Source: Escherichia phage JY01. Taken from it: 64,000 nucleotides of DNA. The notes under the pieces are model-generated. The model was not told where the DNA came from. It was given only the letters and a program-made list of their open reading frames with translations, and made no database searches. Position numbers and translations under genes: made by a program. This document shows positions 6,467 through 59,932 of this stretch, one piece after another. Every line of letters begins with the position of its first letter. The first letter of the stretch is position 1. The DNA is taken from the sequence record OR995200.1; one strand, written 5' to 3'.

Positions 6467-7874
<1,408 letters not shown>

Positions 7875-7878
<4 letters not shown>

Positions 7879-8111
7879 TTATTTTTCTCAACTAATGATT
7901 GAATATAATCATGCAGATCTTTAGACGCCTTAGCCCAATTATTTTGATATTCATTTTTAAGATTAGCACGAGATTGAGCTAATAAAACATCATTAGTTGG
8001 AGGTAAAGATTCTAACCGCTGAATCTGGCGTCCGTAAATCATTGCAGCCATCTCGGATTCATAAATCAATCCTTTGAGATGTTCAAATTGATGCCATGAA
8101 ATCATTTGCAT
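7875..8111 (-). CDS. hypothetical protein (pseT.2 position)
   Basis: 78-aa ORF. Confidence 0.45.
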
Positions 8112-8401
8112 TTATCCTCTTTTAACTCTTGACGATAATAACATATCATAGTTTTCTGATCATGTACATATCGTTTTACATCATTAAGCCAAATGCGAAA
8201 TTCCTGGGAATCTTCAAATGGCATACCGACCCAAGCTTTACCATCAATAACTTTAACTTGCCAAGATAGTTTAGCTTCGTCATATGACTTTATTTGTACA
8301 GGCCAATTAGGATGAACTGTTTCTTTCTTTACTTCTAGAGGCTTTGTAGAACAACCAACTAGAAGACCAATAGATAATATTACTGCTGATAGTTTAATCA
8401 T
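8102..8401 (-). CDS. predicted lipoprotein (pseT.3 position)
   Basis: 99 aa; N-terminal signal peptide with lipobox-like LLVGC. Confidence 0.45.
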   Translation of the reverse strand: MIKLSAVILSIGLLVGCSTKPLEVKKETVHPNWPVQIKSYDEAKLSWQVKVIDGKAWVGMPFEDSQEFRIWLNDVKRYVHDQKTMICYYRQELKEDKCK

Positions 8402-8751
8402 TTAGAAAGGTCCTGGATGTCTTCTGCGAACTTATTGAAGGAGTTGTTGATTTGTTTTTCAACCAATCCTGGCTTACGAGCCACCACATCCGCCTTCTTT
8501 GCGTCTTTGCGCAGCTTTTCATTTTCACGCTCAATAGCAGCAATTGCCTCACGATTTTTATTATTCATTGCATCAATATAATTATATTGATTTTTTAAAT
8601 CATTTAATGCTAAAGCGTTTTCATTGGCCGTTTTTGTAATTTCAGTAACTGATGTTTCTAATCTTTCTACCTTATTTTTTAAAATAATAGATGTTCCGCC
8701 AAATGCTATTACAAGTAATAGCAATCCAGCTGTAAAATTACTTACATGCAT
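8398..8751 (-). CDS. membrane-anchored coiled-coil protein
   Basis: 117 aa; hydrophobic N-terminal helix (LLLLVIAFGGTSIIL) followed by charged helical region. Confidence 0.45.
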   Translation of the reverse strand: MHVSNFTAGLLLLVIAFGGTSIILKNKVERLETSVTEITKTANENALALNDLKNQYNYIDAMNNKNREAIAAIERENEKLRKDAKKADVVARKPGLVEKQINNSFNKFAEDIQDLSK

Positions 8752-9248
8752 AAAGTTTTAATAACCTCTATAATATCGTCTTGAGAAAGACCATTAATTA
8801 AAATATGATGTTCAGCTGGAGATTTAGAAATTTTAAAGCATGCCTCAACATCTTCTGCCATATCCGATGCACTACGATTTGGATTACTAATTCCAAGACG
8901 ATGTTTTCCCGTCAAAGGATTAACGATGATATAGCATTTGCAGCTATTGATATGAACATTAGGCTGAGTCTGATTAATGAATACTTCGCACTCATACTTA
9001 GCGAGTTGATTTTCTAAAAAGACTTTCATCTCCTCAACCGCATCAGGAAGCATATCACGGGCTTGCTCAAGACGACGATTTCGATATTCTTTAATGGTCG
9101 TTTTCCGTTTGACTTGCTTAGCTAAATCTTTCTTAAGATCGGTGATATATCCAACTCGACGATTTCCTTTAAATACAGAAATCCCATCCGTAGTATCACC
9201 GTATGCTTCAACAACCATTTCAGTAGTAATAAGCTGCAAATCCATCAT
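8742..9248 (-). CDS. alc: Alc-like protein (blocks host transcription on cytosine-containing DNA)
   Basis: 168 aa (T4 Alc is 167 aa), located between the pseT cluster and gene 63 as in T4; early promoter module just upstream (9277-9306). Confidence 0.6.
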   Translation of the reverse strand: MMDLQLITTEMVVEAYGDTTDGISVFKGNRRVGYITDLKKDLAKQVKRKTTIKEYRNRRLEQARDMLPDAVEEMKVFLENQLAKYECEVFINQTQPNVHINSCKCYIIVNPLTGKHRLGISNPNRSASDMAEDVEACFKISKSPAEHHILINGLSQDDIIEVIKTLCM

Positions 9249-9276
9249 AAAGTCCTCATGTTATGTCAGTAAAACT

Positions 9277-9306
9277 ACTATAACACAACACGAGAGACTT
9301 GTAAAC
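9277..9306 (-). promoter_or_regulatory. early promoter upstream of alc
   Basis: GTTTAC at 9301-9306 with a TATAGT-type -10. Confidence 0.5.
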
Positions 9307-9309
9307 AGC

Positions 9310-10897
<1,588 letters not shown>

Positions 10898-43092: not shown

Positions 43093-43123
43093 AATTATAC
43101 CACATCCTTGTGGTAAAGTAAAC
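43093..43123 (-). promoter_or_regulatory. T4-type early promoter module
   Basis: GTTTAC at 43118-43123 overlapping the gene 39 stop. Confidence 0.5.
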
Positions 43124-44943
43124 TACTGGCTCATCCATTCTTTACGAAGGTCAGCATTATCTCCCATGAGCATTTCAAAAAGATCTTTCCAGTTCTCAGG
43201 AAGTTTAACAACATCATATACTGGATTTTGAATCATCTCACGATATTCAGATTTTTCCAAAGAGCCAAGTCCCTTAATATAACGGATGCTATGTTTAGGT
43301 AGAGCATCTTTAGCACTCTCATATTCAGCGACTGTATAAAACCATTCTTGTTTTTTACCGACCTGGGCGATGATTACAGGAGTTTTGACAAAGCGAATTC
43401 GTCCTTGCTCAAACAATTCTGGCCAATTACTAAAAAATCCAAGAAGAGAAGGATAAATGCTTCCTAGACCATCATGGTCAGCATCAGTCATAATAGCAAT
43501 ATTATGATAATTCAAGTTTTCAGCTTTTTCACCAAGAACTAATCCAGTGATTGCGCAAATATCAAATAGTTCTTTGTTTTTAAGCATATCAGCATATGAC
43601 ATACCCCAACTGTTGAGAACTTTACCGCGCAATGGATAACCACCATGAAGTTCTTTATCACGAACATCAATAAGATATCCGATAGCAGAATCACCCTCAG
43701 TCAAGAAAAGAGTAGTATCAGCATCTTTACCGCAAAGATTCGCTTTGATATGTTTATGAACCTTTGCCTTAGAAGCCTTTTTAGCTGCTTTAGTTTCAGC
43801 TGCTTTTTCTGCTGCCAATTTACGAGCTAGTGCAGCTTCAATAATTGGCATCAGAATTGCTTCATTATTTAGAATAGCGCGTGAAATCTTTTTAGCGTCA
43901 AGTTGAATATGACTACGGATTTCACCAAATGGAGAAGTCAAACGCTCTTTAGTTTGAGAATCAAATCGCATGTTTTTCATATCACGAACAAACATAACGA
44001 TAGTCAAACATTCTTTAACACGTGCTTTAGTTACATCAATTTTGAACTTACGTTTGATTTGTGGAATAAGGTCTTCACAAATATCATCCATAACACAGTC
44101 AATGTGATGACCACCATTCTTAGTATGAATGTTATTGACGTATGTTAATTGACGAAAACCATCCGGTGAACGACCAACCGCAATAGAACAATTTTCTTGT
44201 TCTTGAACAATAGCATGCTCATCATATTGGCGTGCATATTTCTTAAAATTACCCTGAACCTTTTTACCGTTAAAGGTAAATTGAATATCAGGATAAACTA
44301 CTGCAAGTGTCTGGAGACGATCTAGTGTAATGTCAAGATAAACCTGAGATAGCTCATTAGTTTCAAATGACATAAAATCAGGAATGAAAGTAACACGAGT
44401 TCCTTTCCATTTTCCAGGAATATCTTCCCATGATTTATTTTCCATGCCATTTGAACAACGAACTACAATATTATTTTGACCGTCGCCAGTTTCACCGACA
44501 AACATAACAGAAAAAATGTTAGTTAAACTAGAGCCAACACCGTTCATACCGCCAGTGACGCGTTCTTTATCATCGCCGAAGTTACCACCTGCTTTTGGAA
44601 TAGTCCAGGCGGCAACAGGACCAGGAATTTCTTCACCAGTAGGTGTTTTAACCATCGCTTGTGGAATACCACGACCGTTATCTTCAACTGTTACTTGATT
44701 GTTTTTAATAGTAACGTTAATTTTATTTGCGAATTTAAACTTAGTACGAATACCTTCATCTACTGAGTTATCGATAATTTCATCAATAAGCTTAACAAGA
44801 CCAGGTACATACTGAACACTTTCCCATTTACCAAACAGAAAGCGCTCATGCATTTCATTAGCAGAAGAACCAATGTACATGCCGCTACGCTTTTTGATAT
44901 GTTCAATATCGCTCAGAATTTTAATTTCATTCTTAATCATCAC
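43123..44943 (-). CDS. 39: DNA topoisomerase II large subunit (GyrB-like), single fused ORF covering T4 genes 39 and 60
   Basis: 606-aa continuous ORF; N-terminal GHKL ATPase region and C-terminal Toprim region (LTEGDSAIGYL); no translational-bypass gap and no mobA. Confidence 0.9.
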   Translation of the reverse strand: MMIKNEIKILSDIEHIKKRSGMYIGSSANEMHERFLFGKWESVQYVPGLVKLIDEIIDNSVDEGIRTKFKFANKINVTIKNNQVTVEDNGRGIPQAMVKTPTGEEIPGPVAAWTIPKAGGNFGDDKERVTGGMNGVGSSLTNIFSVMFVGETGDGQNNIVVRCSNGMENKSWEDIPGKWKGTRVTFIPDFMSFETNELSQVYLDITLDRLQTLAVVYPDIQFTFNGKKVQGNFKKYARQYDEHAIVQEQENCSIAVGRSPDGFRQLTYVNNIHTKNGGHHIDCVMDDICEDLIPQIKRKFKIDVTKARVKECLTIVMFVRDMKNMRFDSQTKERLTSPFGEIRSHIQLDAKKISRAILNNEAILMPIIEAALARKLAAEKAAETKAAKKASKAKVHKHIKANLCGKDADTTLFLTEGDSAIGYLIDVRDKELHGGYPLRGKVLNSWGMSYADMLKNKELFDICAITGLVLGEKAENLNYHNIAIMTDADHDGLGSIYPSLLGFFSNWPELFEQGRIRFVKTPVIIAQVGKKQEWFYTVAEYESAKDALPKHSIRYIKGLGSLEKSEYREMIQNPVYDVVKLPENWKDLFEMLMGDNADLRKEWMSQ

Positions 44944-45009
44944 TTATCCTCGTTTGGTTTCGGGAATATTATACTCCGGTAATCATAAAGCTAAAGGCCC
45001 GAAGGCCTT

Positions 45010-45282
45010 TTATTTAAAACGGATAGTCGAATCCTTGAAGAATAGACCAGAACATACGGTTCCTTCTACTTTCTGCCCGGTAGGTCCAATAGCGCGAAAT
45101 CCAGTATGTTGGAAATCATTTTCAGAGCAACCGAACCAATTGTATCCAGTGATTTCAATATTAGTAAAACCGCTTGATGACAAAATTTTGGTTGCATTAT
45201 CAGCATCAGTACATCCTGCTAAAGACACTGCTAATACTAATGCTGCGATAGAACGATTAATATATTTCATAATTTCACTCAA
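45010..45282 (-). CDS. predicted lipoprotein
   Basis: 90 aa; signal peptide with lipobox LAGC. Confidence 0.5.
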   Translation of the reverse strand: MSEIMKYINRSIAALVLAVSLAGCTDADNATKILSSSGFTNIEITGYNWFGCSENDFQHTGFRAIGPTGQKVEGTVCSGLFFKDSTIRFK

Positions 45283-45646
45283 ATTTAATGGCTTGAAGAA
45301 GACTAATAATTCTCAAGCGACTTCTTTCATCTTTAACTGTAAAAGAAAGAGGGTCACCAGATTTCATAGTGATGATGCATCCAAAATCAAAATCTTCTGT
45401 AACTTCTTCGAAGAAGTCAAATTCTTCATCATAAATTAGAACATTACTCTGAAAGCTGTGAAGAATTTTTCCATCATTTCCAGATGCTGTACTAATCATT
45501 GTAACATTATGACCTTTCATATCTTCAACGATAAATTCGCTTGTAGATATTACTGCATTAATAGAACCGTTCCTATGAATAGCAGAAAATAGATATTTCT
45601 TTTCTTCACCTTCGCGAACACGATATTTCTTACCGATTTTAAACAT
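45275..45646 (-). CDS. hypothetical protein
   Basis: 123-aa ORF. Confidence 0.45.
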   Translation of the reverse strand: MFKIGKKYRVREGEEKKYLFSAIHRNGSINAVISTSEFIVEDMKGHNVTMISTASGNDGKILHSFQSNVLIYDEEFDFFEEVTEDFDFGCIITMKSGDPLSFTVKDERSRLRIISLLQAIKFE

Positions 45647-59004: not shown

Positions 59005-59646
59005 TTAACCTTTATTCATAAAAGCATTAAAAATTTGATCGTCAATAGAAACTTTTACTTTAGGCTGTTCTTCAAACGGTAATTCATATCCACATATTAC
59101 AATTTTGTGATCAATATCAAAATACACAGAAGAAATATGATTAATGATGTTTTCAGTAAAGTCTAAATCAACATCAATATCTTTTTGACCACAGCCCAAA
59201 GGATAAATAATGCGAGTAATTCGATTATCTTTAACAAATATTCCACCGACATACTCTGTGCTGCGTTTAAAGTTTACACGTTTCCTAAATGAAAAATATT
59301 CAGGCTCTCTATGAGCTCGGCTCATAGGACACAACGAGTAACTAGAATAAGAGATGTCAAATCCTACACCTTCAATATGAGCCAACGCGTCATGATTAAA
59401 CCAATTATAATCGTACGCCAAATCCATTATATTGTAATATGTGAAAGGCACCGGATTAACATCATGCGTTGTACCTTTAAAATCTGCCCAGGCAACGATT
59501 TCGTTATCTTTAACAATTACAAAAATTGTGCCAATAAGATATCCACGGTTATTTTCATCAGGCGTTATATTATAACATTGTGCACCAGGAAATTTACCGT
59601 ATTTAAACGGTGGATTTTTGTGCATATAATAAATCATATTATTCAC
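59005..59646 (-). CDS. hypothetical protein (61.x)
   Basis: 213 aa; C-terminus IDDQIFNAFMNKG. Confidence 0.5.
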   Translation of the reverse strand: MNNMIYYMHKNPPFKYGKFPGAQCYNITPDENNRGYLIGTIFVIVKDNEIVAWADFKGTTHDVNPVPFTYYNIMDLAYDYNWFNHDALAHIEGVGFDISYSSYSLCPMSRAHREPEYFSFRKRVNFKRSTEYVGGIFVKDNRITRIIYPLGCGQKDIDVDLDFTENIINHISSVYFDIDHKIVICGYELPFEEQPKVKVSIDDQIFNAFMNKG

Positions 59647-59932
59647 CTGTGATTTCGGTTACGATATCTTTGTTATTAAAGTTTTTATCGCAATACAAAA
59701 CATAATTATACTGCATTACACCACCAGACTTAAGCTGTTTTTGCACTTCAGCTTTCATTTCAGGACGATCGCGCTCAACAATATTCATAATATCCGCTTC
59801 AATTTGAGTTTCAACTTCAGTCTGATCCGCAGTCATAGACCATTCACACAAATCTTTATCATAACCTGCCATAGCAGGCTGAGCAGCACAAGAAGCTAAA
59901 GCAAAAATTGTAGCAAAAATAAATTTTTTCAT
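59639..59932 (-). CDS. sp: Spackle periplasmic superinfection-exclusion protein
   Basis: 97 aa with cleavable signal peptide MKKFIFATIFALASCAAQPAMA; matches T4 Sp as recalled. Confidence 0.8.
   Translation of the reverse strand: MKKFIFATIFALASCAAQPAMAGYDKDLCEWSMTADQTEVETQIEADIMNIVERDRPEMKAEVQKQLKSGGVMQYNYVLYCDKNFNNKDIVTEITGE

Follow-up and report, generated by a model that had tools for sequence, protein, structure and literature searches.

The closest described counterparts of the locus studied here are the two-component spanins of phages lambda and T4. In both, an outer-membrane lipoprotein (lambda Rz1, T4 PseT.2) is bound to a type II inner-membrane protein (lambda Rz, T4 PseT.3), function depends on disulfides, and the membranes fuse after wall degradation; the published model holds that the subunits bind via their C-terminal parts within the peptidoglycan mesh, inert until removal of the wall frees fusion. 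In T4, according to Kongari et al. [quoted passage not shown] This pair can stand in for Rz/Rz1: pseT.3 together with pseT.2 restored lysis to a lambda Rz-am/Rz1-am lysogen, the PseT.2 mutants C87S, C98S and the double mutant were all lysis-defective, and the PseT.2 disulfide dimer appeared only with PseT.3 present (PMC6139136). The differences from lambda stressed in that study are the separate genes (embedded in lambda), the structured beta-alpha-beta o-spanin and the need for both Cys (PMC6139136). PseT.2 is larger than Rz1, a proline-rich and unstructured protein, and is itself predicted to be structured; all Cys of the T4 pair lie in the o-spanin. Also unlike lambda Rz/Rz1, the T4 spanins are early and lie away from the holin and endolysin.

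A second set of relevant proteins comprises T5 Llp, which masks the receptor FhuA, Cor-type proteins, and T4 Imm and Spackle, all of them small, early, envelope-located phage proteins, as are PseT.2 and gp39.1, the second protein considered below. Llp and Cor are lipoproteins, and PseT.2 and gp39.1 are predicted to be. PseT.2 is set apart from these exclusion proteins by its demonstrated lysis function, and gp39.1 from Llp and Cor by its conservation far beyond the host range of any single receptor.

We analysed a stretch of 64,000 nucleotides from Escherichia phage JY01 (OR995200.1), hereafter the window. It is a T-even (Tequatrovirus) genome segment: a search with its positions 6600-10500 matched 686 phage records, led by Shigella phage SfPhi01 (99.3% over 3.9 kb). 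The minus-strand ORF at 8102-8401 is almost certainly pseT.2, the outer-membrane lipoprotein subunit (o-spanin) of a T4-type two-component spanin. The features of its neighbourhood are as follows.

6656-7561, minus strand: pseT
7558-7878 and 7875-8111, minus strand: two small ORFs
8102-8401, minus strand: pseT.2, o-spanin precursor, 99 aa, ATG start (ORF; phrog_812 'Rz-like spanin', E 3.5e-43)
8108-8110, 8141-8143 and 8351-8353, minus strand: PseT.2 codons for Cys98, Cys87 and Cys17, respectively
8398-8751, minus strand: pseT.3, i-spanin, 117 aa (ORF; phrog_739 'Rz-like spanin', E 1.3e-37)
8680-8736, minus strand: predicted N-terminal membrane anchor of PseT.3, about residues 6-24 (hydrophobicity)
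8742-9248, minus strand: alc, inhibitor of host transcription (Pfam ALC, E 7.5e-92)
9277-9305, minus strand: sigma-70-like promoter match, TTTACA-17-TATAGT with an upstream TG (extended -10) (consensus scan, 10/12 matches)
9310-10470, minus strand: rnlA

The genes alc, pseT.3, pseT.2 and pseT.1 form a tightly overlapping run in which alc is the first gene. Read directly from the sequence, the TGA stop of PseT.3 overlaps the ATG of PseT.2 as ATGA, and because of this stop/start overlap translation of the two genes is predicted to be coupled. The T4 arrangement is the same, with an upstream 117-aa Cys-less i-spanin, the ATGA overlap and a site downstream of alc. The order alc, i-spanin, o-spanin and the 4-nt overlap are kept in Moonvirus, Roskildevirus, Mosigvirus and Tegunavirus, and the i-spanin/o-spanin pairing in these four and in Ceceduovirus, five other genera altogether; in Aeromonas phage Assk it is the overlapping pair that is kept, the gene upstream of it carrying no name.

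At the protein level the assignment has several independent lines. By tblastn the 99-aa PseT.2 matched 1173 phage records, with an identity of ≥99% in 350, and it is 100% identical to PseT.2 of RB14, to that of T4_ev240 and to many Tequatrovirus proteins. Many of the matching records are annotated 'outer membrane lipoprotein Rz1' or 'o-spanin', exact look-up led to a cluster whose names are 'pseT.2 ... BPT4' and 'outer membrane lipoprotein Rz1', and the UniProt name 'Spanin, outer lipoprotein subunit, T4 y13J' is cited in one record. (Entries of 74-77 aa within this cluster are PseT.1 sequences, a clustering artefact.) The partner is equally recognizable: the 90%-identity cluster of PseT.3 includes SPAN1_BPT4, 'Spanin, inner membrane subunit', and the protein has no Cys and consists of an N-terminal hydrophobic anchor followed by a helical or coiled-coil periplasmic domain, for which residues 24-88 gave sub-threshold Pfam matches to coiled-coil families. 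The alignment of i-spanins showed that the N-terminal anchor is kept, together with a conserved C-terminal VEKQIN motif.

The published antibodies allowed residue numbering to be compared. They were raised to PseT.2 residues 71-84 (WLNDVKRYVHDQKT) and PseT.3 residues 74-87 (ERENEKLRKDAKKA) (PMC6139136), and we found both epitopes at exactly these residues of the window ORFs, so that the numbering agrees with that study. T4 PseT.2 (y13J) has the same 99 aa and the same Cys17, Cys87 and Cys98; there is no difference at the protein level, although the phage itself is not T4. The published experiments, which used T4 proteins in a lambda lysis background and not phage JY01, were thus made with a PseT.2 of identical sequence. 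Every feature of a PseT.2-family o-spanin that can be read from sequence is present in the window: lipobox, +2 residue, adjacent i-spanin, homology and two periplasmic Cys. PseT.2 had no match in Pfam (E ≤ 0.01) or NCBIfam, hence none to a lambda Rz1 profile either; as far as such profiles can tell, it is a functional analogue of Rz1 without detectable sequence homology.

The earlier note on this DNA had drawn attention to 8102-8401 for its lipoprotein-type signal peptide (LLVGC), and this observation held up. The N-terminus reads MIKLSAVILSIGLLVGC and continues STKP..., with one Lys in the n-region, a hydrophobic core of mean Kyte-Doolittle value 2.7 over LSAVILSIGLLV, and the lipobox L-V-G-C ending in Cys17, which satisfies the PROSITE PS51257-type rule; residues 1-16 form the signal peptide, leaving a mature part of 83 aa. 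Since the +2 residue is Ser18 and not the Asp of the inner-membrane retention signal, the protein is predicted to be exported, lipid-modified at Cys17 and sorted to the outer membrane. The lipobox could be suspected of being a chance motif, here and in gp39.1, falling in an ordinary signal peptide or in a protein that is not exported at all, and we therefore looked at the specificity of the rule by applying it to all 326 window ORFs of ≥40 aa, with shuffled N-termini as the control. It matched 4 of the 326, against 1.0 ± 1.0 (maximum 4) after shuffling, and the matches included spurious antisense ORFs as well as the LASC of Spackle, which is not the cleavage site of that protein. With such false positives, and about one match per 326 ORFs expected from shuffles, the motif by itself is weak evidence. 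Conservation weighs against chance: Cys17 is invariant in an alignment of PseT.2 homologues from six genera (Tequatrovirus, Mosigvirus, Tegunavirus, Moonvirus, Roskildevirus and that of Aeromonas phage Assk), as are Cys87 and Cys98, and the lipobox Cys is conserved in the gp39.1 family too, with the Pfam lipid attachment site model LPAM_1 matching 8 of its 22 aligned homologues; moreover, spanin function needs an outer-membrane anchor. A chance origin of the two lipoboxes is accordingly so improbable that we give it almost no weight, and consider both lipoprotein calls solid because the lipobox Cys is conserved in both families.

Expression timing bears on what such a lipoprotein might do. In a T4 omics supplement (PMC9697503), pseT.2 is assigned to the early class for RNA and protein alike; the RNAs of pseT.3 and 39.1 are also early, but their proteins are classed as middle and late, respectively, the 39.1 product having been detected in T4 proteomics. 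The sigma-70-like sequence upstream of alc, a pattern match only, is a candidate early promoter for the unit containing the spanin genes, and is consistent with the early RNA class of both T4 genes. Searching upstream of pseT.3, we found no T4 late promoter TATAAATA on the minus strand between 3310 and 19612; one-mismatch matches occurred at the chance rate and are for that reason uninformative. The placing of both lipoprotein ORFs in early regions, as the earlier note had it, therefore agrees with the T4 RNA classes and, for the alc unit, with the promoter match. The spanin genes adjoin neither holin nor endolysin, and their expression is early, not late, by the T4 classes; this early placement, free of any lysis cassette, is unusual for lysis genes but already documented for T4, and early synthesis is compatible with the lysis model, in which spanins stay inert for as long as the wall is intact.

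The proposal that 8102-8401 encodes an early envelope lipoprotein for superinfection exclusion or receptor masking, in the manner of T5 Llp or Cor, drew on the properties just described, and these we can confirm: the lipoprotein signal, early RNA and early protein in T4, the sigma-70-like promoter at the head of the transcription unit and a position outside any lysis cassette. The function does not follow, however. A lambda phage lacking its spanins regains lysis when supplied with this identical protein and PseT.3, Cys87 and Cys98 both being required, and across genera the gene is always paired with an overlapping i-spanin gene. The PADLOC search gave no match, so that nothing ties PseT.2 to exclusion systems and such a function is unsupported, and the literature search gave no report of an exclusion phenotype. 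We regard exclusion or masking by PseT.2 as very improbable; as the o-spanin of a T-even phage it is not worth pursuing as an exclusion factor. A milder proposal would add a second role to the lysis function, in that the early spanin complex might also strengthen or tether the envelope, with effects on lysis inhibition or lysis from without, besides fusing membranes. It would make sense of early expression, in which these genes differ from the late Rz/Rz1, and the complex does physically join both membranes; yet early placement may merely reflect the organisation of the T4 genome, and spanins are inert until the wall is removed. Such a dual role seems to us nearly as improbable as exclusion.

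The preferred reading, a lysis o-spanin, would have PseT.2 act as follows. The precursor would be exported, lipid-modified at Cys17 and sorted to the outer membrane, steps predicted from its sequence, and its 83-aa periplasmic part would bind the C-terminal region of PseT.3, itself held in the inner membrane by its N-terminal transmembrane helix. Complexes would thus cross the periplasm through the peptidoglycan and build up harmlessly from early infection. Once holin and endolysin destroyed the wall, the complexes would be able to move and change shape, fusing inner and outer membranes as the last step of lysis, with Cys87 and Cys98 making the inter-subunit disulfides that this fusion step would need, as published for the identical protein. 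PseT.2 is, then, an already known protein and ordinary for a T-even phage; the correct label for 8102-8401 is T-even o-spanin, and, with T4 making its spanins early, a lipoprotein that is small and early does not necessarily serve exclusion.

Spackle, the established exclusion-type protein of the window, was correctly located by the earlier note:

59639-59932, minus strand: Spackle (gene 61.3), periplasmic inhibitor of gp5 tail lysozyme (Pfam T4_Spackle, E 3.5e-45; phrog_1586)

If the note also meant that Spackle bears a lipoprotein-type signal, that part fails: N-terminal sequencing has shown cleavage after residue 22 and release as a soluble periplasmic protein (PMC7650644), and processing does not take place at its LASC motif (residues 12-15). 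Spackle is thus cut by signal peptidase I and soluble, unlike the predicted lipoproteins PseT.2 and gp39.1.

The other ORF to which a lipoprotein signal had been attributed (LAGC, 45010-45282) is gene 39.1. The ORF is present, and its lipobox Cys is invariant in 22 homologues; its start was probably placed too far upstream. The relevant features are the following.

45010-45270, minus strand: gene 39.1, predicted 86-aa lipoprotein precursor from the ATG at 45270 (phrog_902, E 7e-38)
45052-45054, 45127-45129 and 45211-45213, minus strand: gp39.1 codons for Cys73, Cys48 and Cys20 (lipobox LAGC), respectively
44993-45010, minus strand: hairpin AAAGGCC-TTCG-GGCCTTT, beginning in the 39.1 stop codon (read from sequence)
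44968-44973: TATAAT, gene 39 promoter region

The longest version of the ORF, 45010-45282, starts at TTG. The ATG at 45270 is the likelier start, since it has a Shine-Dalgarno-like GAGTGA upstream and the homologues, including that of resequenced T4, are of 86 aa. The precursor so defined reads MKYINRSIAALVLAVSLAGC and continues TDADN..., with Thr at +2. The hairpin after the gene is identical in T4 and was absent from the terminator-scan output; it may possibly mark a transcript end, or stabilise the RNA, before the gene 39 promoter region.

T4 itself needs separate treatment, because its reference annotation tells otherwise. NC_000866 gives gp39.1 a length of 65 aa, with no signal peptide, and gp39.2 one of 45 aa; in alignment, this record has LINS replacing the lipobox, and one extra T creates a stop. 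This lipobox-less, frameshifted version occurs in only four of the 232 matching records, all of them old T4 records. Resequenced T4 genomes (MT984581, T4T HM137666, KJ477684-6 and others) differ from the reference here. Of these we translated two, MT984581 and HM137666; both have an 86-aa gp39.1 with LIGC, and the former also has a 58-aa gp39.2. The window protein is 98% identical to the 86-aa gp39.1 of resequenced T4. We considered and rejected a natural pseudogene in T4, the frameshift being confined to the four old records and resequenced T4 being intact. By comparison of these records, the truncated annotation probably reflects old sequencing errors, in which case T4 does encode the 39.1 lipoprotein, and the gene may have been overlooked in T4 owing to its truncated, signal-less 65-aa reference annotation.

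The gp39.1 family is large and widespread. In the alignment of 22 homologues two further Cys are invariant in addition to that of the lipobox. The mature domain, of about 62 aa, has the motif ITGY..F.CS..D...TGF.A...G..V.G.VCSG, and the protein belongs to phrog_902, whose function label is unknown; UniRef names some relatives 'Lipoprotein'. A profile search among 1.84 billion representatives found 2151 proteins at E ≤ 1e-3, of which 977 reached E ≤ 1e-10, a family of at least 2151 clusters at 50% identity. In most members a lipobox-like Cys precedes Thr or Ser; a smaller number carry a simple transmembrane anchor, which would place them in the inner membrane, and in a single case the anchor is prepilin-like. 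Tethering to a membrane, with the domain on the periplasmic side, is predicted throughout the family. By tblastn, gp39.1 matched 1063 phage records, among them phages of Escherichia, Klebsiella, Vibrio, Aeromonas, Burkholderia (BcepSauron) and Myxococcus (Mx1) and Pseudomonas jumbo phages; the mature domain also occurs in phages of Acinetobacter and Agrobacterium, with 45-55% identity between very different hosts. The family is thus represented in Straboviridae, jumbo phages, lambdoid-like contigs and an Acinetobacter integrated element.

Known profiles and structures gave few neighbours. Apart from LPAM_1 in the homologues, nothing matched in Pfam, NCBIfam or PADLOC, and a search of the gp39.1 profile against PDB sequences found nothing. 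AF2 modelled the mature domain with confidence (pLDDT 84-94) as one helix followed by four strands; Foldseek found no fold neighbour for the model in the PDB (best E 0.94), and in BFVD the model matched only the family, including the 'Lipoprotein' of phage PG7 and an Agrobacterium phage Atu_ph07 protein. The literature search returned nothing relevant on gp39.1, neither a phenotype nor a report of exclusion.

The positions of 39.1 in four settings were these:

T-evens: between gene 39 and 39.2
Metagenomic phage contig L010: after a Holliday-junction resolvase gene
Lambdoid-like contig L015: between exonuclease and VRR-NUC/NinB genes
Acinetobacter guillouiae integrated element L003: adjoining DnaQ-like exonuclease and integrase genes

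In the contexts examined, 39.1 sits among early or replication genes. It has no conserved partner gene: the upstream neighbours in L010, in contig L013 and in the window are mutually unrelated replication or recombination genes, which argues that 39.1 is not part of a two-gene module. A spanin role was rejected for it, with no i-spanin adjacent and no lysis genes nearby. The picture from sequence and context suggests a stand-alone early accessory gene whose product would hold a periplasmic domain close to a membrane.

For gp39.1, then, the exclusion proposal needs fuller weighing than for PseT.2. In its specific form gp39.1 would be an outer-membrane lipoprotein that masks one particular receptor, as Llp does FhuA, or otherwise mediates superinfection exclusion. 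This would suit the conserved lipobox, the +2 residue (mostly Thr or Ser across the family), the early RNA in T4, the absence of any link to lysis genes, and the situation of a stand-alone accessory gene that in unrelated phages lies among early or replication genes, and once by an integrase, places typical of exclusion genes. The breadth of the family is harder to reconcile with it, since a mature domain conserved at 45-55% identity in phages whose hosts share no phage receptor is unlikely to mask any single one; the members with a plain transmembrane anchor, the failure to match either a solved fold or a PADLOC system, and the literature search, which found no phenotype, also count against it. 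We consider this form of the proposal doubtful, and a conserved envelope target more likely than a specific receptor. We tentatively suggest, as a possibility still well short of an even chance, that gp39.1 acts on a conserved envelope component and so shields the cell during infection, for instance through generic exclusion or resistance to lysis from without. With much the same reserve it may be regarded as a generic early envelope effector, responsible for broad exclusion, for resistance to lysis from without or for inhibition of a conserved periplasmic host component.

Gene 39.1 is the sole lead worth following from the lipoprotein ORFs considered here. T-even phages, resequenced T4 included, encode a second conserved predicted lipoprotein, belonging to a family of thousands of clusters, and this makes 39.1 a cheap and concrete target for work on envelope biology.

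In the annotation of the T4 reference genome NC_000866 (our locus L002, 5398-5839), gp39.1 appears as a 65-aa protein without a signal peptide, and gp39.2 is likewise truncated, at 45 aa. We translated the gene 39.1 region of two resequenced T4 genomes, MT984581 and T4T (HM137666) (222-661 in each of the loci L017 and L018); both encode an intact 86-aa gp39.1 lipoprotein, and gp39.2 of MT984581 translates to 58 aa. The reference-type sequence reads LINS where the lipobox is expected and carries one additional T, and it is confined to 4 of the 232 records, all four of them old. On these sequence comparisons, the truncated 39.1 and 39.2 of the T4 reference are probably a legacy sequencing error.

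The surroundings of 39.1 (45010-45270, -) in the window include the following features:

43123-44943 (-), topoisomerase II large subunit, one ORF of 606 aa
44968-45010 (-), hairpin with a UUCG tetraloop (AAAGGCC-TTCG-GGCCTTT) plus a TATAAT box, identified from sequence
45275-45646 (-), ORF of 123 aa, phrog_622, unknown function

The 123-aa ORF, which weakly resembles GoF-type proteins (phrog_13003, E 1e-6) in their N-terminal portion, lies between 39.2 and 39.1; T4 lacks it, and the two genes are nearly adjacent there. T4 also differs in that its topoisomerase II large subunit is split between genes 39 and 60, accompanied by the inserted mobA and by translational bypassing in gene 60. The hairpin region is identical in T4. 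The hairpin begins within the stop codon of 39.1, and the TATAAT box comes next, ahead of gene 39; the hairpin was not among the terminators reported by the terminator scan.

The o-spanin gene pseT.2 belongs to a unit, alc-pseT.3-pseT.2-pseT.1 (7875-9248, -), in which stop and start codons overlap in an unbroken chain: by 10 nt, by ATGA, and then by either ATGA or 10 nt. Such overlaps suggest that translation is coupled over this entire early unit. The 90%-identity cluster of PseT.2 includes five sequences of only 74-77 aa (P0184, P0188, P0191, P0194 and P0196), which we rejected as PseT.2 variants; they are PseT.1, the product of the gene downstream, and were placed there by an artefact in how the protein collection was clustered.

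The motif LASC at residues 12-15 of Spackle (59639-59932, -) lies inside the signal peptide and fits the PROSITE-type lipobox rule. Nonetheless, Spackle is not a lipoprotein, and signal peptidase I cuts after residue 22 to give a soluble product (PMC7650644); it is thus a concrete false positive for lipoprotein calls made by motif alone.

Matches to the gp39.1 family in bacterial genomes were only of the integrated-element type, as exemplified in Acinetobacter guillouiae CIP 63.46 (locus L003):

L003 5986-6228, gp39.1-family lipoprotein gene in an integrated element

Within L003 1848-8259, one flank of this gene holds small ORFs and a primase/helicase-like gene of 907 aa; the opposite flank carries a DnaQ-like exonuclease and then a tyrosine integrase. 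Among the profile-search matches, P0073, P0088, P0098, P0103, P0106 and P0135 lack a lipobox and have another anchor, in some members a plain N-terminal transmembrane anchor and in P0135 a prepilin-like segment (GFTLVEMLIV). Since the lipobox has been swapped for other N-terminal anchors in these members, the gp39.1-family domain seems to need membrane tethering, though to no particular membrane.
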